Notes: a model not told the origin generated them from the sequence alone. A DNA stretch of 34,359 nt from Opitutales bacterium (GCA_049599475.1 JBMYOQ010000047.1:1-34359); one strand, 5' to 3'; counted from the first letter of the stretch, positions 3,362 to 34,359 are shown. Made by a program: numbers and translations.

Positions 3362-3366
3362 TAAAT

Positions 3367-4895: not shown

Positions 4896-4940
4896 ATCTG
4901 AGCCTGAATGCAAACCGAATTATAAGATAAAATAGATAGA

Positions 4941-5987: not shown

Positions 5988-5999
5988 TCTAAATAGGTC

Positions 6000-7226: not shown

Positions 7227-7298
7227 ATGTATTTCTGTTAAAAATTATAACCGAATGCCCCTCAACAAAGCACCCGCTGATCGTGCCGATCTCACTCC

Positions 7299-8354
7299 TT
7301 ACACCTCACAGGGTAATTTAGTTTTGTAGTGGATTTCCGACAGTGCCGCTAAGCGCTGAGCCGCCTGTTCCGCAGTCAAGTCCCGCTGAGCATTGGCCAG
7401 CATCTCGTATCCAACCATAAATTTCTTTACAGTGGCCGATCGCAGCAAAGGCGGATAGAAATGCGCATGGAGTAACCAATGGTCTTGATCCCCTTCGATA
7501 AAAGGTGCGCCGTGCCAGCCCATTGAATACGGGAAGGACGTTTCGAATAAATTATCATATCGGGTCAACATGCGTTTTAAGACCTGGGCCAACGACTCTC
7601 TTTGAGCACCATTCAGTTCGGTCAGTCTTCTAGCCGGAAATTTCGGCAGCAACAGAGTCTCAAATGGCCAGGTCGCCCAGTAAGGAACGAGAGTCACCCA
7701 GTCATCATTTTGGCAGACGATACGTTCATTCAGTTCGAGCTCACGCTCGACATAGTCGACCAGTAAATTGCGCCCTTTCGATTCTCGATATGCCTTGAGG
7801 TTCTTGTCCTCTTTATAGACTTCATTCGGGAGAAAATCACTCGCCCAAATCTGACCATGTGGATGCGGATTGGAGCACCCCATGGCACTCCCTTTGTTTT
7901 CAAAAATCTGCACCCAGCTGTATTTGGCTCCGAGCTCCTCAGTCTGAGAAGCCCAGACATCTACAACATCCTGAATAGCCGACTCCCCCATCTCAGGAAG
8001 GCTCAAGTCATGACGTGGCGAGAAACAAATTACCCGGCACTCACCGGCTACCTGCTCGGCCCTAAACAGCGGATCTTCGCCCGCCTGCTCATCTGCCGAT
8101 GGCGTATCGAGGAGCGCAGCGAAATCATTCTTAAAAACGAAAGGCTTCGTGTAATTTGGATTCCTCTCGCCCCCTACTCGCTCATTTCCGGGACACAGAT
8201 AGCACTTCGGATCATATTCCGGACGATCATCCGAAACGGTTTCCTGAGCCCCTTGCCATGGGCGTTTCGCTCTATGCGGAGATACTAATATCCATTCGCC
8301 TGTGAGTGGATTAAACCTGCGGTGCGGAGATTCTAAGATATCAGAAGGTGCCAT
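7299..8354 (-). CDS. galT: Galactose-1-phosphate uridylyltransferase
   Basis: '[25 protein letters not shown]', 'CYLCPGN' and the catalytic '[21 protein letters not shown]'. Confidence 0.97.
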
Positions 8355-15254: not shown

Positions 15255-15324
15255 ATTGTCTCCTTTTCTAATATTAAATCGGCCGGATACGGATCTTGGA
15301 TTAGGCCTTTTTCATTAATCAGTG

Positions 15325-17338: not shown

Positions 17339-19567
17339 TCAATCGCGCGGAGCGAGAGTGCTGCCAGCTTTGCTTACATCGATGGCCTCTATTCCAAGTT
17401 TCTCAGCAGGAGATCCAGGTAAGAACCTAAATATGCGTTGCTTCATCGCCTCTTTATCGAACATCGGATCGACGAATAACATTCCCACTTCCGCGTCTCC
17501 TCGGTGACCATCGGCCATGATTTCTTGCCCTTCGGTGAATTCTTCACTTCGGCCTTCTACATAAAAAAGGGAATTAGAAACCGCTTTAAAAGCCTCTGTT
17601 TGCTTGATGCCAGAAGACTCATCCCAAATCTCCTTATTCATAAGTCCAGCCTTTGGATTCCTACTATAGAATACAACTTTATCCAAGGGTGCTGGGTACC
17701 ACTCTTTGTTGGTAATTTGGATAGCGTCGATGCAGAAGTTATTCGTGTATTCACCATCCCATTTCATCACGAGCATCATTCGTCCTCGTTCGAAGACATT
17801 GTTGCGAATGTATGTGTAGCCGGAATTGTCGTCTAAGCGGATAAAACCACGATTATTAGCGACATCATAAATGTAGTTATATTCCGCGACATTGCCCTCA
17901 CCCATTCCGGAGAAGTAAATGGCATTACCATCATTGAGTTCCTGCATCACGCGGTAGATCTCATTGTAAGCAATCCGGTTTTTGCGCGCATGCAGTAAGT
18001 CTTCGAAAAGGCTGACATCCGAGTTGAGCCATTGCTTTTCCAGCACTTCCTTAATGCCTTCCACGTAGGGAATAATCTCTTCAACACGAAGGCTATTCAC
18101 CCACTCGCGTCGGTTTTTCAGAGTATCATAAAGGGCCAGCTCATGTGGACGCACCCCACTGATCACCATCGCGTTATACGCGAGATCATGGATCGTGTTG
18201 TGAGTGATTTCATTATGGCCGCTCTGAGCAATGAAAATGCCCGCAGAGTGTCGGTAGAGAGTCCCAACATGGTGTATGTAGTTGTTGTGTATGGTGTTGA
18301 ATTTGTTCTCATCCTTGAGACCTGGAGCGTAGCCGCTCAACAAGATCCCCGTTCCCCCAAGGTATGAGAAACGGCTGTCAGACACAGTGTTGTGCTGGCT
18401 ATACATGTCCAATCGGACACCGGTGCCACTACTGGCTTCAAAGACACACCTTTTGATCACGCAGTGCTCGGCGTGGCGTAGCCGAATAACCGCATTGCCC
18501 TTATCATACATTTCCCAGTCATGCTGAAGCGCTTTATCTCCGGGCAGCCATGTATCACGCAGACCGTGACGAAACGTAAGCCCTTCGAATCTTAGAAAAC
18601 GTGCGCGTTCCGAGTCCTCTATTCCTTCGACACGAATAAATTCCTGCAAGTAAGGTGCACGGATATCAGCATTTGCCAATGAGCTTTCCGGCCAGATGTA
18701 TACCCGTCCTTCGAGGCTATTAAACACCCATTCACCGGGCTCATCGAGAAAGTCGATTGCATTGTCGACCTTATATTTATCCTTTGTCTTATTTCCAGGT
18801 TTGCCCGAAAATCCGTAAGTCGGCTCGATAGTAAAGGTCGCTTTATTGTTCGCAATATCGATACTCTCAAGGGGCAAGATGTTGATGAGCCAGTGATGTT
18901 TCGGGCTCATGAAAATTTCGATATCTTGGATATTTTCCCAATCGCGCAAATCTCCCTCATTGAAGGTAAGCTTGCGGCTAAAGACGACGGGCGGATCTCC
19001 AAAAGTCAGCGCTCTACGCGTATCCTTCGGCTGAGCATTTGCAATATCCTGAACATGCTTTTCAGAGACTTCGAAATAGTCCGAACGAGACCGCGTCAGC
19101 AACTCCAGACCATCATACAGCGACGTAATTTTCCAATCACTGGAACTATTTGGAATATCTGTATACCACAATTTACCTTTGGCGCTCGCCGATGTTCCTT
19201 TTGGGTCGTTTTCAACGGGTTTCCAATCAGAGAGTTTCTTAGCTCCTGTAAAAACGGGAACTTCATCCTCATACGCTTTATAAGTAATCGGAAATGCGTC
19301 GGTCCCGGAGTCTTCATAAGAGAAGACGACTGTTGTATCCATCTCATATTCTCCGTCGCGAAAATAGACGACTACGGGTTCAGACAAGCCCTTCTCAATC
19401 TCCTCACGTACCTTGAGGCGAGCTCCTTCTAGCGAAGCCAGAGGACGACTCTTTGAGCCAGTCCAAGCATCATTGCCCGACGGTGAGACATAAAAAGAAG
19501 TATCCGCGAAGATACAGAACGGAGCAAGAGCACTGAGGCTCGCAAGTAGGTAGATGGAGTGTTTCAT
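17339..19567 (-). CDS. Right-handed beta-helix glycoside hydrolase, GH141-like (putative fucosidase/fucoidanase)
   Basis: Signal peptide from MKHSIY (ATG 19567). 'FYVSPSGND..TGS..RPLASL..AR', 'EDSGT...PITYKAY..E.PV', 'LDEPGEW', Asn-ladder beta-helix repeats, and acidic motifs 'DGNAIY' and 'IRLDD'. Confidence 0.75.
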   Translation of the reverse strand: MKHSIYLLASLSALAPFCIFADTSFYVSPSGNDAWTGSKSRPLASLEGARLKVREEIEKGLSEPVVVYFRDGEYEMDTTVVFSYEDSGTDAFPITYKAYEDEVPVFTGAKKLSDWKPVENDPKGTSASAKGKLWYTDIPNSSSDWKITSLYDGLELLTRSRSDYFEVSEKHVQDIANAQPKDTRRALTFGDPPVVFSRKLTFNEGDLRDWENIQDIEIFMSPKHHWLINILPLESIDIANNKATFTIEPTYGFSGKPGNKTKDKYKVDNAIDFLDEPGEWVFNSLEGRVYIWPESSLANADIRAPYLQEFIRVEGIEDSERARFLRFEGLTFRHGLRDTWLPGDKALQHDWEMYDKGNAVIRLRHAEHCVIKRCVFEASSGTGVRLDMYSQHNTVSDSRFSYLGGTGILLSGYAPGLKDENKFNTIHNNYIHHVGTLYRHSAGIFIAQSGHNEITHNTIHDLAYNAMVISGVRPHELALYDTLKNRREWVNSLRVEEIIPYVEGIKEVLEKQWLNSDVSLFEDLLHARKNRIAYNEIYRVMQELNDGNAIYFSGMGEGNVAEYNYIYDVANNRGFIRLDDNSGYTYIRNNVFERGRMMLVMKWDGEYTNNFCIDAIQITNKEWYPAPLDKVVFYSRNPKAGLMNKEIWDESSGIKQTEAFKAVSNSLFYVEGRSEEFTEGQEIMADGHRGDAEVGMLFVDPMFDKEAMKQRIFRFLPGSPAEKLGIEAIDVSKAGSTLAPRD

Positions 19568-19689
19568 AGAGGTGATTTTTTGAAATTCTAATATTTTGAT
19601 CCCAGAAAAATAGGCGATTTGGACTGATCGTAATCCGCTCCGTGTTCTCCACAACTTTGAGCGAATGCTGAATTCGAACCCAATACCGT

Positions 19690-21073: not shown

Positions 21074-22012
21074 CTACTTTACCCGCGGTAAGTTCCTTGT
21101 TATTTTAGCCGTCCATTCCGCAACTGAATCCTCGCCAGTTAGATAGCCATATTTAACCAAGAACGCGTCCGTCTTGACCAGGGTCGCTTCAAACATTTCG
21201 CGACCACCCTTACTAATATTCATGAATCCGTGCCCCTGTCCTTCAAAGAAGTAAGTCTCACATTCATTACCGGCAGCCCGCATTTTTTCCTGAAACACCT
21301 CAGCTGTTGAAACAGGAATCAAGCGATCATTCGTCCCCAGAAGAACTAAGGTAGGCGGTAGCCCTGGCCGGATATTATGAAGCGGCGAAATGTCCTCCCA
21401 ATATTTCTTTACACGACCATGGCCATAGCCATCTGGGCCATTATCGTAAACCGCATTATATAAAATCAGCCCATTGGGCACTGGAGAGATAGGCGATGCG
21501 GTATTTGAATCAATCTTTGGACAAAACGCAGCAGCCGCAGCGACATGCCCTCCCGCAGAACCGCCGCCAGCAATGATTCTTTCCGGATCAATTCCCAATT
21601 CACTGGAATGCTCACGTATATATCGAATTGCCTCTTTGGCATCTTCTGCAGCGACCTGAGGGGGTGTTCCATATCGTTTCTTCACGCGGTATTCCGCAGA
21701 AATAGCCACCATGCCCCGCGACGCCAAATATCCACACTGCCCATAGAATTGCTCTGCAGTGCCGCCATTCCATCCACCGCCGAAAAAGAGCACGACACAC
21801 GGATACTTGAGCTCTTCAGAATACCCTTCTGGCATAAAAACGTGGAGCTTTAATGGCTGTCCCTCTTCCGGATTGAGAAATTCAATCTGTTTACTCGGAG
21901 TTAGGCCAAGTTTCGATGAATACCTTTCCACCGGCTGCGCAATAGCCACCGTTAGGCTCATCAAAAGACTAATACACAGAGCGATTCCAGTAAGTTTTCT
22001 TCTCATATTCAT
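21074..22012 (-). CDS. Secreted alpha/beta-hydrolase (HSL/BD-FAE-like carbohydrate esterase)
   Basis: 'FFGGGW' oxyanion motif, GxSxG 'GGSAGGH', 'GTNDRLIP' and 'GQGHGF'. Signal peptide. Confidence 0.88.
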   Translation of the reverse strand: MNMRRKLTGIALCISLLMSLTVAIAQPVERYSSKLGLTPSKQIEFLNPEEGQPLKLHVFMPEGYSEELKYPCVVLFFGGGWNGGTAEQFYGQCGYLASRGMVAISAEYRVKKRYGTPPQVAAEDAKEAIRYIREHSSELGIDPERIIAGGGSAGGHVAAAAAFCPKIDSNTASPISPVPNGLILYNAVYDNGPDGYGHGRVKKYWEDISPLHNIRPGLPPTLVLLGTNDRLIPVSTAEVFQEKMRAAGNECETYFFEGQGHGFMNISKGGREMFEATLVKTDAFLVKYGYLTGEDSVAEWTAKITRNLPRVK

Positions 22013-22173
22013 AGTGGGCGTCAGAATGTAAAACGACTATGTCCACGAAAGTTTACATAATTCCTCGGACGTGTCCACGGATCTTGCATGCGGTATGAAT
22101 CCGCTCCACCCTAATACCAAATCCCGAAAATATTGATCAAATCAAGATTTTCGAGATTCGGTATTACCAGAGC

Positions 22174-22207
22174 AAAAAAAACTCCCGCCCAAAATGGGCG
22201 AGAGTTT
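22174..22207 (-). terminator. Rho-independent terminator of the PEP-CTERM gene
   Basis: Minus strand reads AAACTCTCGCCCA-TTT-TGGGCGGGAGTTTTTTTT. Confidence 0.85.
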
Positions 22208-22231
22208 ATCAGTAAGTTTTTAAATACGATC

Positions 22232-22987
22232 TTACGCCTGCTTCTTGCGACGTGCCGCCACGACTCCGAATGCAATCGCAGCGATAAGAATTCCGTAGGT
22301 GCTCGGCTCTGGAACTGCAACGATATCGAGAGTCAAGAGACCCAGCTGGTTTCTATTTGCAGGGTTATTCGCAACATATGCAAATGTGTCCCCGTCCCCT
22401 AAGACTAGCGGAGAAGTGAAAAACGCGTCGTTTGATGAGCCAACGAGAGATCCAGTGCTATCGAATATAGAGGCGTCTGGGCCGTTCGAAGAAGTATCGA
22501 AATCATTGAGGCTCAGCAACTGAAGTTGAAAACCGGAATCGAGAAAATCCTGATCCAAATCTACTGTGAAGATGATAGCCTCTGGAGACCTCAAGCGATT
22601 GTCTCCGACCCCGAGACCAGAAGTTCCATTCCGGGCGCCTCGGACCAAATCGGTACCGGTCGTGTAAGCGCCTCCATTGTAGTCTGAAGTTGCCTCCATT
22701 GTAATGGTGAACGAACCACTAGGAGCCGTATAAAGGTCAAACGAGTCAAGTGTTGAGTCCAAAACACCGATAGCCTGAGTCTCTACTCCGTTCGTTGCTG
22801 AAGGAGCAGTGAAAGTGATTCCATCAGAAGACAGATCGCTAAATCCAAGAGCGACAGAGTCTCCATAGTTGATATTGCTGGAAGTGTCCCGGCCTTCGTA
22901 AAAGCCAATTTCTACAGTTCCGAAAGCAGGACCACTGCATAATGCAGCGAGACATAGCCCGAGCGAAGCATAACTTATTTTATTCAT
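22232..22987 (-). CDS. PEP-CTERM sorting-domain surface protein
   Basis: Signal peptide and C-terminal 'AVPEPSTYGILIAAIAFGVVAARRKKQA' (VPEP, TM helix, basic tail). Confidence 0.93.
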   Translation of the reverse strand: MNKISYASLGLCLAALCSGPAFGTVEIGFYEGRDTSSNINYGDSVALGFSDLSSDGITFTAPSATNGVETQAIGVLDSTLDSFDLYTAPSGSFTITMEATSDYNGGAYTTGTDLVRGARNGTSGLGVGDNRLRSPEAIIFTVDLDQDFLDSGFQLQLLSLNDFDTSSNGPDASIFDSTGSLVGSSNDAFFTSPLVLGDGDTFAYVANNPANRNQLGLLTLDIVAVPEPSTYGILIAAIAFGVVAARRKKQA

Positions 22988-23130
22988 AGAGAGGGTGAAC
23001 GAATTGGTGATTGGTTAACGACTATATGAAACCTTTTCAAAACCATCCGATCAACCACTCCACTACCCATCGTTTGCATAGTAGCATAGATTCCAATTCT
23101 TCCCGATAGTGCATGGTTATTAACAAAACA

Positions 23131-23152
23131 ATACCCCATAAACGATGGGTAA
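23131..23152. promoter_or_regulatory. Pseudo-palindrome TACCCCA-N7-TGGGTAA (copy 2) in the divergent promoter region
   Basis: ATACCCCATAAACGATGGGTAA, with extra TTACCCC half-sites at about 23198 and 23273. Confidence 0.45.
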
Positions 23153-23326
23153 CGGAGCTATTGCCCGCGCGTAGCAGGTAAAAATGATAATGGCATATTA
23201 CCCCACTGTGGCCGAAGCTCATCGAGCACACGCCTCTTATCTACGTTCAAAACCTATTATCCGTTCAAGGTATTACCCCCATGAGCGCACCCCCACAAAG
23301 CTCAATCATCACCTAACCCCATTAAC

Positions 23327-26300
23327 GTGTTGCCAGCTACCCTTAAGTGCCTATCGATAGCCGTAGGTTCAGTCCTACTGTATCATTCTACCTCAGCCCA
23401 GGTCTCATTCCGCTCAGACACGAGCGCAGCCACTCCCACCAAGTCATTCTTCTACAACTGGAACGGTTTCGAAGTCCAGTGGTATGGTCCCAGTATCGGA
23501 TTCGTAGACGGAGACGAATTTAACGGTGCTCCTGTCGGCGGGCGGTCTTTTACGCAGCCCTACAGCCAGAACTCTTTTGCCTACGAAATCTCAGCGGTTA
23601 TGTCTTGGGATACGGCAACAGCTGTTCAATCCATTGTCGATCCTGACAGCCTCCCGGGTATCAACTCGTTTCTAGACTACTTAGCAGGCTTGACCCCCGC
23701 AGAGGTCAACAAACATGGCGGAAGCCAATATGGTCTGGGTGTTGAAAATAACAATAATCACGACGCAGACGGAAACCAGATTGACGCCAACCGCCGCGAC
23801 AAAATTGACGATGTGGGCGAGGCCTTGGTCATCCAATTCGATCTCCAAGGCTCCCTAGCCATGCCCGATCCCGCGAATGCCGACGAGACCCAAGGCGAAT
23901 CCTACACATTTGGACCCGACGACTCATACACCTTCGAAAACACGGGGCTGAACGAATATGCAGCGCTCACACTTGAGGAACTATATATCAAGAAATACAG
24001 CACAGCGAACAACCCTACCAACGCTCGCATCGATTTCCTATTCTACGACGTCAGCGAAAATACTTTTGTTCAGGACAGCCTAGATGGAGACGCCTTTTAT
24101 GAATACCTCAATCTGGACGCATCAAACTTCATTCTAACCGGTCCCTGGACTATCGAACACGGCGACATTCTTATACTCGCTCACCCGACCAACGAAGCCA
24201 ATAATTTGAGCATGCTCAGCAACGAGCTCTGGAGCATGACATTTGATCTGGATTTCAATCCACCTCCAGCACCGACTATCGAAATACCTGCAGATCCCGC
24301 AGATTTTCCACAGCATCCCTACACTCCAGGTTTCCAAAACATCTGGCGTGAAGACGGCGAGACCGTGGCGATGTATCGGACTGAGCAAAACAACGATACG
24401 ACTCGGACCGTTGTCATGGACTTTCACCGAGGTTATCTACTCACCGAGAATCGCGGCACATCCGATGGCAATAAGGGCACGCGTATCGTTTTCGACATTT
24501 CAGGCACCTCCGCTCCTCTTAACGAAGGCGAAGACCCGAACACCCGTTTCCCCTCCGAGTTTTATAGAGATATCAACGCTGATGCGGGCCAACACAATGC
24601 ATGGATGTATGCCCCCGACCATCGCATAAATCGCTCTCAGTGGGCTGATGTATCCGATATGTCAGACGTTCACAATGTCGGCTTCCCAGACGGGTATGTC
24701 GGTGTAGGCTCAAACGGACTACGCAGTGCCTATGTGCTCCCTTACCACTACTCTTCACCCATTAATTCAGGGTTCGCCGTCTGGGACGCACGTACCAATA
24801 CACAGCTCTCCCTTGCAAACGATCACGGCTTCGGCGGCATGGTGATGCCCGTGGGTAATATCATGCTTATCTCTCAACTACGTGCTGGAGAAAAGGCAGT
24901 CGCCACCTACGATATCAGCGATCCAAGCGCGCCTGTTCTTCTCGATGTTCTCCGAGGTGAGAATCCTCAATGGCGCAATACCGCAGCGGGGTCCTATGAG
25001 CCGTCAGTATACAACCACTATATGGTCATTCCTGCATCGGTTAATGGAGGGAGCGTCACCTTTGTCGATTACTCCGACCCGGCAAATCTGCGCGTGCATG
25101 AAATAGTCAAGCCCGTCGAAGGCTCTGAGCGCTACATCCAGTTTAAAGACCACCGCATGTTCGCGGGCACCGAGGTAATCGACATAACACACCTCGACGG
25201 CGGCATCGTCTCCCGAGAGCATAATTTCCCAGGGCACAAAGGTGAATACATGCTCCCTCTGGGCAATCTCGTCGTGTGTGCAGAGAATTCCGAACAAGGA
25301 GCCGAAAACATGGGGGCTATTTTCGCATTTCAGGCCGAGCCCGACGTTGTCGCACCGAAGGTGACATACCACATACCGGCGGCCGGAGCGGAACACCAAC
25401 GAGTCACCAGTCGTATTGGTTTGATGATACACGAAACTCTGGACCTAACCAGCCTCAACGAGAATACCCTCAAAGTCTTCCCTGTCAGCGATCTGACTGA
25501 AACGAGTATCGACGGCACTCGCACCGCGAGCGACAAAGATATCATCACCTTCACGCCCAATGCCCCACTCTCTCCAGAGACCACCTACCGCGTAGTCGCC
25601 GAAGGTATAAAAGATATTGTGGGCAATCCTATGGAGCGTTTCACATTCGACTTTACTACAGAGGGTCCTGATTCGCTGTGGTATCCCATCGTAAACAATT
25701 TTGGCTTTACCAATACAGACGATCTACTCGTCAACCAGCCCGTCTATTTCTCCTTCGATGCAAGCCCAGACAACGGCGAGGATCCCTCTACCCTCGAATA
25801 CCAATGGGATTTCGGCGATGGGAAGACGACAGCCTGGAGTAATGAGAATCAGTCAATCAGCCACAGCTACACTACGGAAGGCCTTTTCCGGATCAAAGCT
25901 AAGGTGCGGAGTGTAAATGCACCCAGTCTTTCCGTGGCCCGCAGTATCCAAGTTTCCATTATTCAAAAGGCAGCAGGCGAAGACGGGTTTGAGCCGCGTC
26001 TCGAAGCGGAAAACATGACCAACTCCAGTATTGGCGAATCGGAAAGTGCTTCTAATGGAGCATACTCTCGAGCCGGAAGTGTTCCATTCACATTCAACGC
26101 AGTTCCCGGAGTCTACGATTTCGTACTGCGCTTTTCTCACGATAAAAACAATGGATCTCACCGTGAGTATGACATTTTCTTTAGCAAAGGAACGCTCAAC
26201 GAAGATGGATCCTACAGCTATACCGAAATTCAGGAATGGCCATCATTGATCCCAGCGAATACGACCTGGGAAGAGAGCGTAAATGCCGTATACATCACAG

Positions 26301-29122
26301 AAGCGGGCCGGTATCGAGTAGAGGCTCGAGGAAACGAAGACGGCGCCAGACGACCGCGCCTGGACTACCTAGACATCCTAATTGGCGATCAAAACATGCG
26401 CCTAGAGGCAGAAAACGTGCCCCTAGAAAATATTGTAAACGGCACTATCACCGCATCCGAGGACGCTTCAGCAGGCGCATATGTGAAAAGGAGCGGCGGC
26501 TTCAGCATCACCTGGGAATTTGATGCAGGCCCCGAGGGCGGACTCTTCGATGCAGCCTTCGGTGTCGCGTCAAACAGAGAAAATAGCAACATGCGCAGAT
26601 TGGATGTCATCCTAAACGGAAATCTCTTGCCCACTCAACTCGAGCGAAACGTTAAGAGCTTCGAGCCTCCCATACCCTATCCCCTCGAACTAGTCGCAGG
26701 AGTAAACACCATTGAACTGAGTGATCCTAGCAATGGCCGCGCCCTCGAGGTCGACTATATGGATATATTAATCCCCGAGTATATTCCACCAGAAGTGTTG
26801 ATGCCGCAGAGCAGCGGACAGATGGCCCTGGATAGCACCAATCGACTAATTATCTCGATAAATCCCGACAACGATACCATCACAGCAATCAATGCGGATA
26901 CACTCGCAAAGGAATGGGAAAAGGCCGTAGCCACCAATCCACGCAGCTTAGCCATCGATGCAAATGGCCTCATCTGGGTCGCTTGCCATGAGGGCGATAC
27001 TATCAGCATTATCGATCCGATCAACCCCGCAAACGATCAAGAACTGGCACTGAATTATGGCTCTGGGCCACACGACATTGTTTTTAACCAAGATAAGACC
27101 ATAGCGTATATTTCACTATACACTGCCGGCCAGGTGATTCAATTGGATGCCACCCTGATCAATGATCCCCAAGCGGACCTATTGATCGACACAGTAGATG
27201 TGGGACCCTTCCCTGCGGCCCTTGCGCTCAATCCTGGAGGCTCCGAGCTATATGCGACTCGCTTCATTTCTCCGACCGACAATGGAGAGCTCTATGTCGT
27301 AGCGATCGATGCCGAGACTGGTGTCATGACGGCTCAGCCGACAATTTCACTCGCGAAAGAGGTCGACGTAGAAGACGGAAATAATCAAGGCCGCGGCGTT
27401 CCCAATTACCTTTCCAGCATCGTTATCAATGCGGACGGAACTAGGGCCTTTGTAGCGTCACAGAAAGTGAATACACTTGCAGGCGAGCTCGTTGATCCTA
27501 CAGGCACAATCCTCAATCACGATTCTACAGTTCGCAGTATCCTGTCTAAAGTTGATCTCGCTTCGAAAACGGAAGACTTCGAGGGCCGCCACGATTTCGA
27601 CAGTGGCTCGCAGCCATCAGCCCTTACCTTCTCCTCCCGAGGAGACTACATCTTCGTCGCGATGCAAGGCAACAATCACATCCGCGTGATCAATACTGTG
27701 CTCGATGCCGAGGTATTAGAATTGGAAACAGACTTGGCCCCGCAAGGTTTGATTTTCGACGAAGCGACCAACCGCCTCTTCGTGAAAAACTTTATGGGCC
27801 GCACGATCACCGTCCACGAGCTTAACCAGGCGATGACTACCGGTGACTTCACGAACACGACCCCTCAGGACATTAGCACGGTGGCCAATGAGGTCCTCCC
27901 AGATAATATTCTCCTTGGTAAACAGATCTTCTACAATGCGGACGACCTACGCATGAGTGATGAGAGTTACATGTCCTGCGCCTCCTGTCACCAAAACGGT
28001 GGGCACGACGGCGTGGTGTGGGACTTCACTCAACGCGGTGAAGGCCTGCGTAATACCACGGACTTACGGGGTCGCGCAGGCATGGGTCACGGCAACGTGC
28101 ACTGGTCGGCAAATTTCGATGAAATTCAAGATTTCGAACTCGACATTGTAAACGAATTCGACGGCAACGGCTTTATTGAAAACGGCACGCCCCATCCATC
28201 CATGGGCACGCCCAATGCAGGACGTAGTGACGATCTGGATGCACTGGCGGCCTATGTAGCCTCCCTGGCTCAAGAGACGATTCCTGCAAGTCCGAACCGG
28301 CAAGCAGATGGCACCCTCACGCCTGATGCCCTCCATGGAAAACGACTTTTCGAAGGCCAGCTCACATTGGCTTCCGGAAATACCCTAAACTGCATAGAGT
28401 GTCACGTATCTGAATTTCAATTCACCAATAGCGTAATCTCCAACGATAGCTTTGGGGCCCCGAATCTACACGATATAGGTACGCTCAAAAGCAGCTCAGG
28501 TGGACGTCTGGACGGCAGCCTTACCGGTATCGACACTCCCACACTTTGGGGACTCCATGACGGCGGTCCTTATCTGCACGATGGCAGCGCGGCTACAATT
28601 GAGGCAGTCTTCGATCAATTCGATGCCAACGCCGCAATAGGCGAAGATGGCGCTGCACACAACTTGGGAGCTACGGGCTACAACCTCACTCTAGAGGAGA
28701 AGGCAAGCCTCTTAGCCTATCTCTACCAAATCGACGGCACGGACCTTCAGCAAATGAACGCCAACACCTGGATGGCTTCCTGGGGCCCCAACCCACTCGA
28801 TCCAAATGCCGACATCGATGGCGATACACTCAACAATTTCTCAGAATACATTTTTGGCGGAAATCCATTCATCGCCAATGGTCCAGACATCCTACCACGA
28901 ATCGTATCAGAAAACGGAGAATTCAAATTCCGCCTAAACTGGCGCTCCAATGATCCAGATATCCAATACGCAGTGCAGAACTCTCTGGACTTGGAAACAT
29001 GGACTGAAGCCTCCCTATCCGTATCCTCAGTAGAAGCGCTGAGTGATTACATAGACTCAATCGACTTCTCAATCCCAATGGACACCGCAGAAAAATTTTT
29101 CCGCCTCTCGGCATCGGACTAA
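23327..29122 (+). CDS. Giant secreted multidomain di-heme c protein: N-terminal beta domain, LVIVD-like propeller, Ig-like (Big_5), PKD, two CBM35/CBM6-like modules, YVTN propeller, bCcP/MauG-type di-heme domain, C-terminal tail domain
   Basis: Signal peptide. 'YDISDPSAP' repeats, 'YQWDFGDG' PKD, two 'RLEAEN...(L/V)DY.DI' modules. CASCH (27977-27991), CIECH (28391-28405), 'RNTTDLRG', 'HWSANFDEIQDFE' and 'DTPTLWGL...PYLHDGSA'. Confidence 0.85.
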   Translation: MLPATLKCLSIAVGSVLLYHSTSAQVSFRSDTSAATPTKSFFYNWNGFEVQWYGPSIGFVDGDEFNGAPVGGRSFTQPYSQNSFAYEISAVMSWDTATAVQSIVDPDSLPGINSFLDYLAGLTPAEVNKHGGSQYGLGVENNNNHDADGNQIDANRRDKIDDVGEALVIQFDLQGSLAMPDPANADETQGESYTFGPDDSYTFENTGLNEYAALTLEELYIKKYSTANNPTNARIDFLFYDVSENTFVQDSLDGDAFYEYLNLDASNFILTGPWTIEHGDILILAHPTNEANNLSMLSNELWSMTFDLDFNPPPAPTIEIPADPADFPQHPYTPGFQNIWREDGETVAMYRTEQNNDTTRTVVMDFHRGYLLTENRGTSDGNKGTRIVFDISGTSAPLNEGEDPNTRFPSEFYRDINADAGQHNAWMYAPDHRINRSQWADVSDMSDVHNVGFPDGYVGVGSNGLRSAYVLPYHYSSPINSGFAVWDARTNTQLSLANDHGFGGMVMPVGNIMLISQLRAGEKAVATYDISDPSAPVLLDVLRGENPQWRNTAAGSYEPSVYNHYMVIPASVNGGSVTFVDYSDPANLRVHEIVKPVEGSERYIQFKDHRMFAGTEVIDITHLDGGIVSREHNFPGHKGEYMLPLGNLVVCAENSEQGAENMGAIFAFQAEPDVVAPKVTYHIPAAGAEHQRVTSRIGLMIHETLDLTSLNENTLKVFPVSDLTETSIDGTRTASDKDIITFTPNAPLSPETTYRVVAEGIKDIVGNPMERFTFDFTTEGPDSLWYPIVNNFGFTNTDDLLVNQPVYFSFDASPDNGEDPSTLEYQWDFGDGKTTAWSNENQSISHSYTTEGLFRIKAKVRSVNAPSLSVARSIQVSIIQKAAGEDGFEPRLEAENMTNSSIGESESASNGAYSRAGSVPFTFNAVPGVYDFVLRFSHDKNNGSHREYDIFFSKGTLNEDGSYSYTEIQEWPSLIPANTTWEESVNAVYITEAGRYRVEARGNEDGARRPRLDYLDILIGDQNMRLEAENVPLENIVNGTITASEDASAGAYVKRSGGFSITWEFDAGPEGGLFDAAFGVASNRENSNMRRLDVILNGNLLPTQLERNVKSFEPPIPYPLELVAGVNTIELSDPSNGRALEVDYMDILIPEYIPPEVLMPQSSGQMALDSTNRLIISINPDNDTITAINADTLAKEWEKAVATNPRSLAIDANGLIWVACHEGDTISIIDPINPANDQELALNYGSGPHDIVFNQDKTIAYISLYTAGQVIQLDATLINDPQADLLIDTVDVGPFPAALALNPGGSELYATRFISPTDNGELYVVAIDAETGVMTAQPTISLAKEVDVEDGNNQGRGVPNYLSSIVINADGTRAFVASQKVNTLAGELVDPTGTILNHDSTVRSILSKVDLASKTEDFEGRHDFDSGSQPSALTFSSRGDYIFVAMQGNNHIRVINTVLDAEVLELETDLAPQGLIFDEATNRLFVKNFMGRTITVHELNQAMTTGDFTNTTPQDISTVANEVLPDNILLGKQIFYNADDLRMSDESYMSCASCHQNGGHDGVVWDFTQRGEGLRNTTDLRGRAGMGHGNVHWSANFDEIQDFELDIVNEFDGNGFIENGTPHPSMGTPNAGRSDDLDALAAYVASLAQETIPASPNRQADGTLTPDALHGKRLFEGQLTLASGNTLNCIECHVSEFQFTNSVISNDSFGAPNLHDIGTLKSSSGGRLDGSLTGIDTPTLWGLHDGGPYLHDGSAATIEAVFDQFDANAAIGEDGAAHNLGATGYNLTLEEKASLLAYLYQIDGTDLQQMNANTWMASWGPNPLDPNADIDGDTLNNFSEYIFGGNPFIANGPDILPRIVSENGEFKFRLNWRSNDPDIQYAVQNSLDLETWTEASLSVSSVEALSDYIDSIDFSIPMDTAEKFFRLSASD

Positions 29123-29177
29123 AGGTAGATATTTCATTCGGATAGGCACCCACATCTAACGTGGCCCTCGACCCCAC

Positions 29178-29264
29178 GTGTTTTCGTTTATTCTGCTTGA
29201 TCCACTCCTCCAAGATCCGGAGTGGTAAGGCGAAGCGTCCCTGATGAGCCGCGGCATTTAAGCC
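29178..29264. repeat. Dispersed repeat, inverted homolog of 1211-1295
   Basis: Collinear match including GGCTTAAAT, GGGACG.TTCGCC..ACCACTCC and CAGAATAA.CGAAAA.AC. Confidence 0.75.
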
Positions 29265-29314
29265 TATATTAGCTCTCAGGGAGCCCGGTCAACCTAGGAG
29301 AGGCGGTTTCTAAG

Positions 29315-29428
29315 GTGGTGGCGCCGGATCACCGCACCCGGCATGAGCGCGTTAGCAACAGCCAACAGTCTAAGCGGCTAAAGCCGAGTCATGCTCGCTC
29401 GGTGAGCGAGCGCTACCTAAATAGAGAT
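29315..29428. repeat. REPIN-like doublet, inverted copy of 17125-17234
   Basis: About 5 mismatches across the two arms, with a variable middle. Two inward-facing GGTRG-CGC hairpin units. Confidence 0.85.
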
Positions 29429-29731
29429 CCCACCCAAGAATCTGAAATTTATTCGGGGTTAAGTCGAAACGGTCCAAGCCACAAAAAGGCCGCAATTTTT
29501 CGTTAAAATGCGACAACGGGCTAGGCAGGTTCATCTCCGAAAATAAAGGGGCTTGAATTTATTTATTCAACCGTTATCGATCACAACTCAGGTTCATAGA
29601 CCCACATTACCCCCCGGCGCTCACACCACCCTGCGCCTGCTCTACTCACCCTCTATTAACTTCCATTCTTCGCTCTTGGTTTCAAATCAGCGATTTCGGC
29701 AGTTAAAAATCACCATCACCACACACCACAA

Positions 29732-32700
29732 ATGTTCCCCCTGCCTTGCTCTTTTGCTCGGAGGAATCGGCTTTTGTATGCCCTTTTCTCGCTCTTAATA
29801 AGCACCCTTTCAATCCACGCCCAAATCCCAGGTTTAATTGAAGCCGAAGACTTCGACCCCGGCGGCCCAGGAGTGGCCTATTTCGATACCACTGCTGGTA
29901 ACAACGGAGACAGTTACCGGGCTGAAGATGTAGATATTCAAACAGCGGATGATGTGCTCGGTGGAGGGTTCAATATCGGCTGGACGACGACTGGCGAGTG
30001 GCTGCAATACACCGTCAGCGATATCACGCCAGGCGATTATTATTTTATGCTTCGCGTAGCTCGGAGACCCAGCGGAACCTCGGATATCGAAATTAGTATC
30101 GATGGTGAAATCGTCGATACAATCTCCGCATTGTCCACAGGCGACTGGCAAACATATGTAACGCTCAACACTGCAGAGCAAATCACCTTCGATGGTAGCC
30201 CTGTCGTCATCCGCATCACGTTCCTCGAAGGCAATGTAAATCTGAATTGGATTGAGACGACAGACACCCTACCCGAAAACGACCTGGGCTTCCCGAACGT
30301 CCCACAGACTGAAGGAGCTATTCTTGGAAGCGCCTACGTAAATGGAGCCAGCGACGACGTTCGCACCGTCGTGATGACGTATTTCGATAAATACCTCTTC
30401 ATGGAATCACGCAGCGTACCAGCTGACGGCGAAGGCGGCGCCACTCAAGTATGGGATATTTCCAATCCAACAAGCCCAGTCGAAGTCACTCGAATCGGCC
30501 AAGACCGAATCATGCACACCTCCTTCGTCCACATTACCGCAGCCGGCGAATATTATCTAATCAACTCCACACGCAACAATCGTCCCGGCAAAAATTTCGT
30601 CAACATCACCAACCCGCTCAACCCGGTCCGCGAGATTCCCCCAGGCCACAATCCGGATGATTTCGGCACGCGCGGTGCCCACCTCCTGCCCTACCAATAT
30701 AGCGGAGGTTCAACGATAAGAATCTACAACACACTAACGGGTGAAAGAAAAGAGGTCTCTGATCATGGCTTCGAAGGGCAACCCACGCTTATCGGCAACC
30801 TTATGGTAGTTATGGGGGTGCGCGGGCAAAGCCGCCAAATTGCCACCTACGACGTCGGCGACCCCATGAACCCTGAATTTAAAAGCGTATTGAATCTGTC
30901 CAGCAACACCGCGCAAGATCCCGACTCAAACCCAGCCTACGAGCCTGCTATCTGGAAACATTACGCGGTGTTTCCCAACGTACTCTCAGGTAGCAACGCA
31001 GACGACGTAGCCTTCATCGATTTTTCCGATCCGATGGGGCTAGAGCATGTCGTGTATTCCAATGGCGACGGCACTTACGGCACAGGACTCCCCGGAAGAA
31101 CACGGTATGCACAATTTCAGGACAACTTCATGTTTGTCGGTTCCGGAAAATATAACCTCACCCCGATAGAAGACGGCGGTGAACCCGTGCTCGATCTGGC
31201 CTTTCTAGAACAAAACGGTGAATACCTCCTCCCAATGGGTAACCTTCTGATGAGCGCCGAGAACACAGAACAAGGGAGTATACCCGACGCCGCAGGTCCT
31301 TACCCATTTCAAATAATCGCTCACCAAACCGCGCCCGACGAGACTCCTCCAACAATTGCCTACCACATTCCCCGAGACGGTGAAGGCAACCAACACATCA
31401 AAAGCCGTATCGGCGTCGTCATTCACGAGACACTAAACTTAAAAACCATCAACGCCACCACTTTCCGCGTCTTTCCGACAAGTGGCGGTGCCGACGTGCC
31501 AGGCAGCTGGAACGTTCACGATAAAGACATTCTTACCTTCACCCCTGACAGCGACCTAGAAGAAGCCACTGAATACACCGTGCTCCTTGAAGGCATTGAA
31601 GATGTTGCAGGGAACGCGATGCTAGCCGATTCCTTTACATTTACCACATCTGGTGCCGGTGGATTCCCTCCGATAGTCCTCGCAGACTTCAACTATACAG
31701 GATACCCCGCCCCCGTAGGAGCACCCACCCCGTTCTCAGTAAGCGCTAGCGGAGGCGATGGCACCTTCGAATACCGCTGGAGCTTCGGTGACGGAACCAT
31801 TTTAGACTGGGCAGCCAACAATGCTTCTCCCAGCCACACATACGCCTCGGAAGGTCACTACACCGCGCAGGTATTCGTACGGGACAGCAGCGGAAACGAT
31901 CGCTCTTCAAGCCCCCTAAAAGTCACCGCGACCAATGCCACCGTGCCCGCGACCCCTCCTATCGCAAGCAGCCAGATTATCCTCAATTCCACTGAAGACA
32001 CGGTCTGGACCGTTTTCCCAGACAACAACCGCGTCCTCGCTATCGATACAGCAACCCACTCCATCGCGCACAATATAGACCTCGGCCTCAACTCCGACCC
32101 ACGCAGCGTAGCTGAAGATGGAAACGGACAAATCTGGGTAACGTGCATCGATGGTGACCGCATCGATATCCTCAGCGGCACCACCGGGCTTCTCGTCGAC
32201 TCAATCGCCACACCCATAGGTTCACGCCCGCACGACATTATCTTCGACGCTGCGAAGACCTTCGCATACGTCAGCCTCAAAGGCTCTGGACAAATGCTCC
32301 GCATCGATCCGGCCTCCCATGATCTCGTCTTCCTCGATGCCGGCCCCACCCCCACTGCGCTCGCCATAGACCCATCCAGCGACCGCCTCTTCGTCTCACG
32401 ATTCATTTCCCCAGACACTCACGGCGAAGTGCGCGCATATTCAATCAATAATGAATTTGTGCTCGACCACACCTTCACCCTTCAAAAAGACACCATATCC
32501 GCTGAAAACGGCCAGATCGGGCGGGGACTCCCCAACTACCTAGCCGGCGTCGTCATCAGCCCCGATTCTCAATACGCCTATGTGAGCTCCAAGAAGGACA
32601 ACATCGACCGCGGCGAATCCACCGTGCGCTCCGGCGATCCCTTCACGTTCGAGACCACCTCACGGCCCATTCTCTCCAAACTCGATCTGGTAAATGACAC

Positions 32701-34246
32701 CGAAATTTTCAACGAACAGTTCGATTTCGACAATTCTTCCCAGCCAACCGCCATAGTATTCTCCCCACTCGGCGACTACGCATTCACAGCCCTCCAGGGA
32801 AATAATCGTATTATGATCGTGGATACATACAGCCACACCTTAGCAGGCAATATACCGAGTGGCTTCGCCCCCCAAGGCCTACTGCTCACCCCCTCCACAT
32901 ACCACCTTTATATAAAAAATCTCAATGACCGCTCAGTCACCGTTTATGACCTCACGGATGGTCTAATCCGTGGAGACTTCAGCGCACCGCCAATAGCAAC
33001 AATAAATCTCGGGAGTGAGATCATGGATCCCGATGTTCTCGCGGGGAAAATTGTCTTCTACAACGCCAGTATAGAAATGACGCAGGACGAATACATCAGC
33101 TGCGCACTCTGCCACCAGGATGGCGATCATGACGGCCGCACTTGGGACTTCACAGATCGCGGGGAAGGCCTCCGCAACACCACCAACCTCCGCGGGCGCT
33201 CAGGCCTGGCCCATGGCAATGTCCACTGGAGCGCAAATTTCGACGAAATCCAAGACTTCGAGCACGACATCATTGGCCCCTTCGGCGGCGATGGCTTTAT
33301 TCCAGGAGGCCCCAATCCTCCTTTAGGCAACTCAAATGCCGGCCTCAGCGATGCACTCGATGACCTCGCAGCCTACGTCACTTCTCTTGGATTGTCCTCG
33401 GTAGAAACAAGCCCTTACCGGGATGCCGATCGCTCCCTCTCCGCCCAAGGTAATGAGGGTAAACGTCTCTTTGAAGGCCAGCTCATTCCTGCCGCCGGCA
33501 CTCCACTAAATTGCATCGATTGCCACACGCCCGAATCCGATCGATACACCGACAGCACACTCGGCACAAATTTCACACTTCACGATGTAGGGACCCTCCG
33601 CAGCAGCTCCGGGAATCGCTTAGGCGGCGACCTTGACGGTATCGACACGCCTACGCTGCTCGGATTACACGCTTCGGCCCCGTACTTCCACGATGGCAAT
33701 GCAGCGACCCTAGAAGAGGTCTTCGATCCATCTCGGGTAAGTGCGACTCCTGGCGAGACAGGCAATGTGCATGATTTGACAGCAACAGGCTTCAATCTAA
33801 ACACCCGCGAACGAGAAAGCCTAATAGCCTACCTCAAGCAGATCGACGGACGTGCAATTGGCAGCACCAGCCTCAGCGAATGGCTCCTGACTTGGGGCCA
33901 AGACTTGGGAGGCGGCACTGTCGATCTTGATGGCGACCAATTCACAAGCGAAGCTGAGTATTTCTACGGAGGTAATCCAGTCCTAGCCGATGCGGGAGAA
34001 CAAATCCCCTACTTCTTCATGGACGGCGATGACATGAAGTTCAGCTTCATCCGCCGCATCAACGATCCGACACTCATATACACCATCTGGAGCTCTGCAG
34101 ATTTAGAAGAATGGATGGAAGAAACAAGCTTACCCACCCCAGAAACCAACGATCTCAACGAAGCGCTGCAGGAAGCCATCTACACCATACCACCCACTCA
34201 GCAAAACATGTTCTTCAAAGTAAGCGCCACCAACAGCGTTTTCTAA
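29732..34246 (+). CDS. Paralogous giant secreted di-heme c protein: CBM6, LVIVD-like propeller, Big_5, PKD, YVTN propeller, di-heme domain, C-terminal tail domain
   Basis: Signal peptide. CBM6 'IEAEDFD...NIGWTTTGEWLQYTV...TGDWQTY...NVNLNWI', 'YRWSFGDG'. CALCH (33101-33115), CIDCH (33512-33526), 'HWSANFDEIQDFE' and 'DTPTLLGL...APYFHDG'. Confidence 0.87.
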   Translation: MFPLPCSFARRNRLLYALFSLLISTLSIHAQIPGLIEAEDFDPGGPGVAYFDTTAGNNGDSYRAEDVDIQTADDVLGGGFNIGWTTTGEWLQYTVSDITPGDYYFMLRVARRPSGTSDIEISIDGEIVDTISALSTGDWQTYVTLNTAEQITFDGSPVVIRITFLEGNVNLNWIETTDTLPENDLGFPNVPQTEGAILGSAYVNGASDDVRTVVMTYFDKYLFMESRSVPADGEGGATQVWDISNPTSPVEVTRIGQDRIMHTSFVHITAAGEYYLINSTRNNRPGKNFVNITNPLNPVREIPPGHNPDDFGTRGAHLLPYQYSGGSTIRIYNTLTGERKEVSDHGFEGQPTLIGNLMVVMGVRGQSRQIATYDVGDPMNPEFKSVLNLSSNTAQDPDSNPAYEPAIWKHYAVFPNVLSGSNADDVAFIDFSDPMGLEHVVYSNGDGTYGTGLPGRTRYAQFQDNFMFVGSGKYNLTPIEDGGEPVLDLAFLEQNGEYLLPMGNLLMSAENTEQGSIPDAAGPYPFQIIAHQTAPDETPPTIAYHIPRDGEGNQHIKSRIGVVIHETLNLKTINATTFRVFPTSGGADVPGSWNVHDKDILTFTPDSDLEEATEYTVLLEGIEDVAGNAMLADSFTFTTSGAGGFPPIVLADFNYTGYPAPVGAPTPFSVSASGGDGTFEYRWSFGDGTILDWAANNASPSHTYASEGHYTAQVFVRDSSGNDRSSSPLKVTATNATVPATPPIASSQIILNSTEDTVWTVFPDNNRVLAIDTATHSIAHNIDLGLNSDPRSVAEDGNGQIWVTCIDGDRIDILSGTTGLLVDSIATPIGSRPHDIIFDAAKTFAYVSLKGSGQMLRIDPASHDLVFLDAGPTPTALAIDPSSDRLFVSRFISPDTHGEVRAYSINNEFVLDHTFTLQKDTISAENGQIGRGLPNYLAGVVISPDSQYAYVSSKKDNIDRGESTVRSGDPFTFETTSRPILSKLDLVNDTEIFNEQFDFDNSSQPTAIVFSPLGDYAFTALQGNNRIMIVDTYSHTLAGNIPSGFAPQGLLLTPSTYHLYIKNLNDRSVTVYDLTDGLIRGDFSAPPIATINLGSEIMDPDVLAGKIVFYNASIEMTQDEYISCALCHQDGDHDGRTWDFTDRGEGLRNTTNLRGRSGLAHGNVHWSANFDEIQDFEHDIIGPFGGDGFIPGGPNPPLGNSNAGLSDALDDLAAYVTSLGLSSVETSPYRDADRSLSAQGNEGKRLFEGQLIPAAGTPLNCIDCHTPESDRYTDSTLGTNFTLHDVGTLRSSSGNRLGGDLDGIDTPTLLGLHASAPYFHDGNAATLEEVFDPSRVSATPGETGNVHDLTATGFNLNTRERESLIAYLKQIDGRAIGSTSLSEWLLTWGQDLGGGTVDLDGDQFTSEAEYFYGGNPVLADAGEQIPYFFMDGDDMKFSFIRRINDPTLIYTIWSSADLEEWMEETSLPTPETNDLNEALQEAIYTIPPTQQNMFFKVSATNSVF

Positions 34247-34311
34247 TACCTACGACACATAAAGGCGAATAGTCTCGATGAGCGGCTGAGGGCTTTACGG
34301 AAGTCTTATAT

Positions 34312-34359
34312 CGGTTCTCAAAAGTGTTTTCGTTTATTTTGGTAGAAGCCGACGACCCC
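34312..34359 (+). repeat. Start of another end-motif plus GGTAG REP element (truncated by the window edge)
   Basis: CGGTTCTCAAAAGTGTTTTCGTTTATTTTGGTAGA matches the reverse complement of 13696-13731. GGTAG....GACGACCCC matches 4586-4604. Confidence 0.7.

Follow-up and report, generated by a model that had tools for sequence, protein, structure and literature searches.

The closest described relatives of the proteins reported here belong to hydrazine synthase of Kuenenia stuttgartiensis (PDB 5C2V), which combines a seven-bladed, cofactor-free propeller (the beta subunit) with a di-heme subunit (gamma), the two being fused in Scalindua. As the enzyme is described in PMC12607021, heme gamma-I, ligated by His and water or hydroxide, is catalytic, heme gamma-II is bis-His ligated, and electrons enter via gamma-II in the reductive direction. 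Distant fused beta-gamma homologs are reported to be highly prevalent in environmental bacteria, without the key residues and with no function assigned (PMC12758564, 2025). The wider superfamily also takes in the canonical bacterial cytochrome c peroxidases (bCcPs), the H2O2-driven protein oxidisers MauG, MbnH and BthA, and the extracellular di-heme rubber oxygenases RoxA, RoxB and RoxC, which attack a polymer. Here we describe two neighbouring genes, P0001 and P0002, in a stretch of 34,359 nucleotides (the window hereafter) that forms contig C47 of an Opitutales bacterium genome (assembly of 4.68 Mb in 146 contigs, 96.6% complete). Both encode giant, predicted secreted proteins in which a hydrazine synthase beta-gamma-like core is joined to further propeller, Ig-like and binding modules, and we tentatively read them as glycan-anchored, H2O2-dependent di-heme oxidoreductases. 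A preliminary description of this DNA knew of no characterised superfamily member that carries carbohydrate-binding modules or acts on polysaccharides, and a literature search returned no paper characterising the family or its architecture, apart from the homolog survey already mentioned (PMC12758564).

23327..29122, plus strand: gene P0001, giant di-heme propeller protein, predicted secreted; 1931 amino acids, GTG start (open reading frame list and translation)
29732..34246, plus strand: gene P0002, second di-heme propeller protein, predicted secreted; 1504 amino acids (open reading frame list and translation)

Both open reading frames (ORFs) are present with the lengths and positions first given for them, and the motif reading made at that time holds. 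Each protein has exactly two CxxCH motifs (residues 1551 and 1689 in P0001, 1124 and 1261 in P0002), about 135-140 residues apart; in shuffles of the same proteins the mean motif count was 0.0002-0.0006 and two were never seen. The RNT, HWS, TPTL and PY(L/F)HDG elements occur once each in the di-heme region, with an extra RNT at residue 550 of P0001. Pfam matches common to both proteins are Big_5, PKD, a lactonase/SGL/YVTN-type propeller and CCP_MauG, the propeller match being to Lactonase/SGL in P0001 and CCP_MauG scoring 35.0 bits there (cut-off 25.6). Each N-terminus bears a hydrophobic stretch ending in AQ that looks signal-like by eye, in keeping with the export proposed earlier; public gene calls place the two starts 1 and 14 codons further in. 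Apart from the heme motifs, the mature proteins contain one Cys (P0002) and two Cys (P0001). Heme attachment is feasible in this organism, since two Cytochrom_C_asm genes are found in the genome.

The features that make up the core of the two proteins are the following.

26804..27826, plus strand: P0001 YVTN/lactonase-type propeller (Pfam Lactonase, SGL and NHL matches)
27869..28816, plus strand: P0001 di-heme domain, with CASCH at 27977-27991, HWS at 28100-28108, CIECH at 28391-28405 and PYLHDG at 28568-28585
31964..33016, plus strand: P0002 seven-bladed YVTN propeller, closest in structure to hydrazine synthase beta (model m23f5e619329e, Foldseek, VIA-align)
33017..33886, plus strand: P0002 di-heme domain, with CALCH at 33101-33115, HWS at 33224-33232, CIDCH at 33512-33526 and PYFHDG at 33680-33697

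With P0002 alone as query, the best PDB match of the di-heme domain is the gamma subunit of hydrazine synthase (5c2v_C, E 2.6e-10). A profile built from the nine paralogs of this genome improves the match to E 5.1e-19 and covers the whole domain, followed by MbnH (6e1c, E 8.7e-13) and the bCcPs 3o5c (1.2e-8) and 1iqc (8.2e-8). An AlphaFold model of P0002 residues 740-1400, computed with 25 homologs, shows a seven-bladed propeller packed on a helical di-heme domain (pLDDT 82.6, pTM 0.86). The top Foldseek match of the propeller is hydrazine synthase beta (5c2v_B, E 9.6e-16), and in VIA-align 5c2v_B (Z 35.0, 304 residues aligned at a root-mean-square deviation, rmsd, of 2.1 A) is tied with the archaeal YVTN propeller 1l0q (Z 34.4). 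The corresponding region of P0001 is 47% identical to P0002 residues 743-1392. Because the propeller best matches beta and the di-heme domain best matches gamma, the conserved core is a fused hydrazine synthase beta-gamma-like unit (YVTN propeller plus di-heme domain). The assignment to the bCcP/MauG superfamily is borne out by the two CxxCH motifs, the CCP_MauG match and the PDB profile matches. The nearest relatives named in the preliminary description, RoxA and MauG, have to be replaced by hydrazine synthase beta and gamma as the closest solved structures: MauG matches the profile at E 0.13, and RoxC and RoxB score 17.4 and 14.5 bits against an NCBIfam cut-off of 900. A RoxA-like_Cyt-c match is likewise below threshold (23.6 vs 26.7 bits), and 4b2n, a 662-residue chain titled '70 kDa protein' which we take to be RoxA, matches the paralog profile at E 0.68. 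To our knowledge RoxA has neither propellers nor carbohydrate-binding modules (CBMs).

Conservation was assessed in 123 sequences, comprising the nine copies of this genome and 114 database proteins, at about 42-60% overall identity. The CxxCH pair is invariant throughout. A total of 28 residues are invariant in 123/123, clustered around the heme 1 motif and the 60 residues that follow it in the pattern Y..C..CH, D, DF, R.EG.R, HW, NF, DF, G.G; in P0002 they include D1134, D1139-F1140, R1143, E1145-G1146, R1148, H1165-W1166, N1169-F1170 and D1175-F1176. Beyond heme 1, the second CxxCH, the Pro of TPTL and the H.G of PYxHDG are invariant. The His-Trp pair (P0002 1165-1166) is found in all 123 sequences, its position between the hemes being taken from the sequence motif only, not from a heme-bound structure. 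The loop after PYxHDG carries a His in 102 of the 123 members, in two alignment registers, and no conserved Met was seen after this motif across the set. This invariant surround is more in keeping with a catalytic role of heme 1 than with simple electron transport. From these patterns we infer that heme 1 would be catalytic and heme 2 six-coordinate, perhaps with bis-His ligation.

The core nevertheless differs from hydrazine synthase in several respects. In the family profile, gamma Cys165 (the third covalent heme link) and Asp168 are replaced by Phe and Gly, and the invariant His-Trp pair lies near the site of gamma His144. The NCBIfam models hydrazine_gamma and hydrazine_BC, which have cut-offs of 625 and 1250, give 38-53 bits. 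There is no alpha-subunit gene and no heme protein among the neighbours in the window, and unlike hydrazine synthase these are predicted secreted proteins of a non-anammox organism with extra propeller, Ig-like and CBM modules.

The modules that suggest glycan binding lie in different places in the two proteins.

25958..26722, plus strand: P0001 two repeated divergent CBM6/35-like modules, residues 878-1132, about 125 amino acids each (weak assignment)
29837..30271, plus strand: P0002 CBM6/CBM35 module, residues 36-180 (Pfam, PDB)

CBMs had been claimed for both proteins, and the claim is firm for P0002 and weak for P0001. Residues 36-180 of P0002 score 57.8 bits for CBM_35_2 (cut-off 23) and 53.2 bits for CBM_6 (cut-off 28.9), and match the CBM6 of PDB 2y8k (also 5la2) at E 1.7e-23. 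For P0001 residues 878-1132 there is no Pfam match and no single-sequence PDB match. The region is an internal repeat (35% identity) that is kept in paralogs; it aligns with the P0002 CBM6 at an hhalign probability of 78%, its top PDB profile matches are CBM35-bearing chains (E 1.2e-3 and weaker), and its protein-atlas features reach 0.90-0.92 to CBM6/35 clusters. The equivalent module of one paralog scores 26.8 bits for CBM_35, below the cut-off of 28. These signals are weak but consistent, and the region probably consists of divergent CBM6/35 modules.

Module usage in the family was tallied by hand for the 120 best relatives, from Pfam annotations computed beforehand. A CAZy-type CBM (CBM2, 3, 5/12, 6, 10, 35 or ricin) is listed for 19 of them, a number that rises to 33 when LamG, PA14 and GH115_C are added to the CBM/lectin tally, and a type IX secretion system (T9SS) sorting domain is listed for 10. 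Directly checked examples are a CBM3 in Flavivirga eckloniae, CBM2 plus CBM10 in the relative P0039, and CBM5/12, ricin and CBM6/35 in the relative P0117. The nine copies of this genome also vary in their accessory modules, which include CBM35, LamG, He_PIG, GH115_C, a lactonase propeller and a weak ulvan-lyase-type beta-trefoil. Judged by these domain matches, binding modules in the family are frequent and swapped.

The family is large and widespread. A word-indexed search returned 1520 proteins at E <=0.001 among 7995 candidates scored, and when HMMER was run exhaustively over 1.84 billion cluster representatives, at least 1166 reached E <=1e-30; the best 150 of these 1166 clusters show 42-60% identity over the matched stretches, and nearly all span most of the 661-residue query. 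A genome scan located at least 588 stretches with the family, in phyla that include Verrucomicrobiota, Planctomycetota, Bacteroidota (among them Aquimarina, Flammeovirga and Chitinophaga), Pseudomonadota, Myxococcota, Acidobacteriota, Fibrobacterota and KSB1. Cultivable organisms among the carriers include Aquimarina spp., Flavivirga eckloniae, Luteolibacter marinus, Polaromonas and Rhizobacter. Members of about 630-930 amino acids consist of PKD, YVTN propeller and di-heme domain, a common form of about 1320 adds the first propeller and Big_5, and the largest exceed 3000. In a myxobacterial-type assembly (L062:7788-12052) the gene is split into an ORF with first propeller and Big_5 and an ORF with PKD, YVTN propeller and di-heme domain, which is due to a frameshift or else is a natural arrangement in two genes.

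Within the order of this organism, 3 of 30 relatives carry the family, and its own genome holds nine copies. The seven further paralogs are located at C14:3128-10123, C18:1478-6181, C40:11516-18679, C40:27876-33788, C41:4084-11940, C54:10796-17413 and C107:106-5970. Most of them lie within a few kb of a contig end, and these paralogs are therefore suggested to break the assembly. In a FastTree phylogeny of the 123 rows (nine own copies and 114 database proteins, after removal of five database rows that duplicated own copies), one clade (support 100) unites P0001 and five further own copies with three proteins of other Verrucomicrobiota assemblies, P0002 is sister to another database protein (support 99), and the C18 copy sits in a different major branch. 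A recent tandem duplication of P0001 and P0002 is ruled out by their placement in different supported clades; on the same grounds the tree identifies them as old paralogs from different subfamilies. The idea that the pair forms a special local system is not supported by these results. Nine copies with different binding modules in one 4.7-Mb marine genome offer a natural panel for target specificity.

Based on these observations, we propose that P0001 and P0002 are glycan-anchored, H2O2-dependent di-heme oxidoreductases, a reading to which we give a probability of roughly 45%. The CBM6/35-type modules would hold the protein at a glycan surface. H2O2 would react at heme 1, whose His ligand and open or water-occupied site would resemble those of hydrazine synthase gamma-I and of the peroxidatic bCcP heme. 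Six ligands would surround heme 2, with the His in the loop after PYxHDG as candidate sixth ligand, as in bis-His gamma-II, and the invariant Trp presumed to lie between the hemes may carry oxidising equivalents. Once oxidised, the di-heme unit could draw electrons from a substrate on the bound polysaccharide or close to it; phenolics, the glycan as such and a partner redox enzyme are candidates. Both propellers and the Ig-like domains would serve as scaffold and binding surface, since no cofactor site is recognisable in them.

At least part of the family can be tied to peroxide chemistry because a copper-radical-oxidase-like module is fused or adjacent to it. In the relatives P0118 and P0122, a galactose/glyoxal-oxidase-like module (Kelch propeller plus GO E-set) stands in for the first propeller and Big_5. 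A gene for such a protein also adjoins the family gene in two loci (L043 and L095) of our survey of other genomes, for which 22 loci were picked, one was dropped as no family ORF was called, and 21 were kept, with 220 ORFs of at least 170 residues scanned and 8 distal ORFs left out. Copper radical oxidases are described as producers of H2O2 that are matured or activated by peroxidases (PMC4736821, PMC9770985, PMC12951238). The arrangement recalls known pairs of copper radical oxidase and peroxidase (GlxA-DtpA of Streptomyces, fungal AlcOx with a tandem peroxidase); unlike these, P0001 and P0002 themselves carry an LVIVD-like propeller, and the known partners are peroxidases of the DyP or class II type, with no di-heme c-type enzyme among them.

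Several observations weigh against the proposed activity. The AlphaFold models contain no heme, so that ligands and the distal pocket are not readable from them; the di-heme fold was compared by sequence only, because propellers took up the Foldseek and VIA-align lists obtained with the 661-residue model; and P0002 scores 24.8 bits for CCP_MauG, just below the cut-off. For 87 of these 120 relatives no recognisable CBM or lectin module is listed, which makes glycan targeting a common trait of the family and not a defining one. Unrecognised binding modules are possible in such relatives, as in P0001 or in the C-terminal domain of core forms; the C-terminal 139 residues of one core-form relative (P0047, 1322 amino acids) gave neither a PDB sequence match nor a Pfam match. 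Gene neighbourhoods are heterogeneous, and a conserved partner gene was not found around the own paralogs or in the 21 loci. No extracellular source of H2O2 or electrons was identified, and no GO-like E-set was found in this genome, a weak negative as the control search matched in no genome. A sequencing-run search returned no RNA run for the organism, only DNA runs of seawater and marine metagenomes. Finally, the hydrazine synthase module runs reductively, and electrons could therefore flow in either direction here.

One alternative is that the proteins are plain peroxide scavengers like canonical bCcPs, reducing H2O2 to water at an algal or plant polysaccharide surface and thereby keeping an oxidative burst of the host, or oxidase-made peroxide, from harming the cell and the enzymes that it secretes. 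The two CxxCH motifs, RNT, Trp, TPTL, PYxHDG and the Pfam CCP_MauG (PF03150) match are shared with 3O5C and 1IQC, to which the profile matches at about E 1e-8, and the copper-oxidase fusions would make peroxide that needs removal. In one of the 21 loci, from a Verrucomicrobiales assembly, a YaaA peroxide-stress gene (L034:14073-14879) lies directly 3' of the member. Canonical bCcPs, however, are periplasmic proteins of about 320 residues, as opposed to the 1500-1900-residue multidomain proteins seen here, and they need electrons from a periplasmic cytochrome or cupredoxin, none of which is evident outside the cell. The C-terminal high-potential heme of canonical bCcP has His/Met ligation, and this ligation is not conserved in the family, in which the 102 members noted above have a His where the Met ligand would be expected. 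Nine large multidomain copies with varied modules are also hard to explain by detoxification alone, and we regard pure scavenging as unlikely, if still worth serious attention.

A second alternative is that the proteins relay electrons outside the cell for other redox enzymes, with copper radical oxidases, pyrroloquinoline quinone (PQQ)- or sugar dehydrogenases, or lytic polysaccharide monooxygenases (LPMOs) as partners. Precedent exists in CBM-appended c-type heme proteins of polysaccharide degraders, namely Cbp2D and Cbp2E of Cellvibrio japonicus and TERTU_3803 and TERTU_2913 of Teredinibacter turnerae, which like P0001 and P0002 are large and extracellular; Cbp2D and Cbp2E are described as able to reduce LPMOs (PMC10916295, PMC8981238, PMC12542752). 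By the description in PMC10916295, they differ in having a single-heme X183 domain with X122, X132 or X158 and in lacking the combination of di-heme domain and propellers. The fused or adjacent copper-radical-oxidase-like modules would suit such a role, as would a GSDH plus NPCBM gene directly 3' of the member in one surveyed locus (L039), a PQQ dehydrogenase gene near another (L041), and the resemblance of the candidate bis-His heme 2 to the electron-entry heme gamma-II. Set against this, the heme 1 pocket is invariant across phyla, which suggests catalysis over shuttling, no partner gene is conserved around the own paralogs or in the surveyed loci, and this genome yielded no GO-like E-set under the limited search described above. 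LPMO_10 gave no match in the 96.6%-complete genome, and an LPMO partnership is disfavoured for this organism. On balance, a shuttle of this kind seems rather improbable.

A bolder version of the proposed H2O2 chemistry would make the whole family substrate-anchored extracellular di-heme peroxygenases or peroxidases that attack polysaccharides or cross-linked phenolics with H2O2, as a heme counterpart of LPMOs, with modules swapped per target and some members fused to a copper oxidase. The swapped modules would then aim at cellulose, chitin, hemicellulose or sulfated algal glycans. Outside this superfamily, the combination of a heme peroxidase with a carbohydrate-binding domain is described for fungal Hybrid B heme peroxidases with WSC domains (PMC5571214), which are eukaryotic and contain b-type heme. 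We consider this generalisation doubtful, a long shot. Should the activity proposed for P0001 and P0002 be real, microbial glycan turnover would gain, through a secreted protein that is very common in polymer-degrading bacteria, an oxidative tool based on heme beside the copper-based LPMOs, and a function would be given to the non-anammox relatives of hydrazine synthase beta-gamma, so far only called 'prevalent' in the literature.

It has also to be considered that the di-heme domain acts as a MauG/MbnH-like maturase in cis, using H2O2 to oxidise a residue in its own propeller or in a partner and so making a protein-derived cofactor. MbnH is the second-best PDB relative of the family, the presumed inter-heme Trp is invariant, and a propeller is permanently joined to the di-heme domain in one chain. 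Long-range protein oxidation is described for MauG, MbnH and BthA (PMC6405878); long-range oxidation through a di-heme/Trp unit is also the mechanism inferred for P0001 and P0002. MauG itself, by comparison, is a poor profile match (E 0.13), the NCBIfam models for MauG/MbnH score 27-43 bits against cut-offs of 363-444, and there is no dedicated partner gene. As judged without coordinates, no conserved Tyr could be assigned in the family to the MauG/BthA-type sixth-ligand position. The invariant positions of the first propeller are of a structural D-x-S-x-P type with no invariant Cys or Trp, and the homologous hydrazine synthase beta propeller is described as cofactor-free (PMC12607021). We regard a maturase in cis as very unlikely. 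Nitrogen-oxide chemistry as in hydrazine synthase gamma, for example the conversion of NO to hydroxylamine, is the least credible explanation and highly improbable: the best PDB and NCBIfam similarity is to gamma and fused beta-gamma and the propeller resembles beta, but hydrazine-synthase-like chemistry is rejected on the missing Cys165 and Asp168, the NCBIfam scores stay far below their cut-offs, the neighbourhood holds no gene resembling the alpha subunit, secretion is predicted for the proteins and some members bear CBMs, and the homologs are reported without key residues (PMC12758564).

The remaining parts of the two proteins are as follows.

23402..24316, plus strand: P0001 N-terminal domain of unmatched fold, residues ~26-330, common to five of the nine paralogs
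24317..25336, plus strand: P0001 first propeller, LVIVD-like (homology to the modelled P0002 region; sub-threshold LVIVD match)
25343..25909, plus strand: P0001 Big_5 (673-778) and PKD (802-861), Ig-like (Pfam, 52.6 and 38.8 bits)
28817..29119, plus strand: P0001 C-terminal domain of about 100 amino acids, common to other large ORFs of the genome; no Pfam match
30284..31336, plus strand: P0002 first propeller, LVIVD-like (AlphaFold model ma2051cdd77cd; sub-threshold LVIVD and choice_anch_B matches)
31337..31927, plus strand: P0002 Big_5 (536-639) and PKD (658-732) (Pfam, 58.8 and 50.4 bits)
33887..34243, plus strand: P0002 C-terminal domain of about 120 amino acids, common to other large ORFs including three long sulfatases

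Two beta-propellers per protein had been anticipated, and both are found, by AlphaFold models in P0002 and through alignment and Pfam in P0001. In the model of P0002 residues 185-745, a second propeller is followed by two Ig-like domains (pLDDT 81.5). No specific match could be assigned to this first propeller of the chain, as the fold search gave generic propeller and Ig hits only: the best were 1l0q (E 7e-9, TMq 0.17) and galactose oxidase 2wq8 (TMq 0.39, rmsd 10), and protein-atlas features reached at most 0.82. In a comparison of 30 sequences its invariant residues fall on repeated positions of D-x-S-x-P type, and no invariant Cys or Trp and no obvious metal or catalytic set were seen. The N-terminal domain of P0001 (about 300 residues) aligns at 40-51% identity with paralogs on C14, C40, C54 and C107, and has no match in Pfam, NCBIfam or PDB, by single sequence or profile, nor to the CBM-like modules.

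The C-terminal domain shared by P0001 and P0002, for which Pfam and NCBIfam gave no match, also closes seven or more further large ORFs in the assembly (on C66, C30, C114, C54, C2, C46 and C49). Three of these ORFs are long sulfatases, of 1217, 1139 and 1048 amino acids (C66, C30 and C114). Given this distribution, the domain may have an anchoring, sorting or export role, perhaps a lineage-specific one.

In the preliminary description the pair was tied to a fucoidan-type locus, and the genes in question are indeed close by: a BD-FAE esterase, GH29, a GH141-like beta-helix protein, a sulfatase and a GFO/IDH/MocA oxidoreductase, all on the minus strand. Two genes of this side are relevant here.

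17339-19654, minus strand: beta-helix protein, 771 amino acids (PDB 9rx2, E 8.7e-112; GH141 founder 5mqp, BT_1002, E 6.4e-12)
22232-22987, minus strand: PEP-CTERM protein gene, 251 amino acids, followed by a strong terminator-like hairpin at 22207-22179

The first matches a PDB entry (9rx2) titled 'Parallel beta-helix repeat protein'. The PEP-CTERM gene and its own hairpin stand between the di-heme genes and the esterase, GH29, GH141-like and sulfatase genes, so the latter lie beside the pair on the opposite strand with another gene between. The di-heme genes are thus divergent from these genes for sulfatase and carbohydrate-active enzymes (CAZymes), with no co-orientation or operon. A promoter and terminator scan of 22000-34359 gave counts at shuffle level.

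Sulfatases are so dense in this genome that any gene is likely to lie near one: Pfam gives 109 sulfatase matches over 4.68 Mb, many of them clustered in runs (e.g. on C2, C62, C81 and C93). We compared the paralogs with random 6.5-kb placements, using 77 sulfatase loci found by tblastn and a distance of 10 kb. Three of the nine paralogs lie within 10 kb of a sulfatase, compared with 24% of random placements (P 0.38). The other own paralogs adjoin unrelated genes, although two of them have a CBM96 or GH10 gene close by. Five of the 21 loci of other genomes contain a gene for a glycoside hydrolase or sulfatase, a count taken without a background rate for those genomes: in Aquimarina these are GH9/GH48 and GH5 genes with a CBM6 protein, and the rest are single cases of GH3, GH43, sulfatase and GH29. 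The Aquimarina sp. locus (L049:110-19391) is the clearest CAZyme context seen, with a 2352-residue CBM3-bearing member located between GH9/GH48 and GH5 genes, both T9SS-tailed, and a CBM6/CBM96/GH115_C protein. Sulfatase proximity in this genome is thus at chance, and an enrichment of CAZymes and sulfatases around homologs, which the preliminary description had put up for checking, is not supported. A functional tie of P0001 and P0002 to the neighbouring fucosidase and sulfatase genes is not supported, and the finding does not show a fucoidan-specific system.

Genes for extracytoplasmic function (ECF) sigma factors, FecR or Ser/Thr kinases stand beside members in five of the 21 loci and beside two of the own paralogs (cases in this genome and in others are L012:5081-7622 and 14144-16201, L014:4907-6648, L100:12362-14775, L090:5574-7238 and L043:12636-14177); they are possibly regulators of family members. 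Elsewhere in the window, positions 1534-8354 hold a Leloir-type galactose set consisting of a sodium:solute symporter, a XylR/AraC-type regulator, aldose 1-epimerase, a GHMP kinase and galactose-1-phosphate uridylyltransferase.

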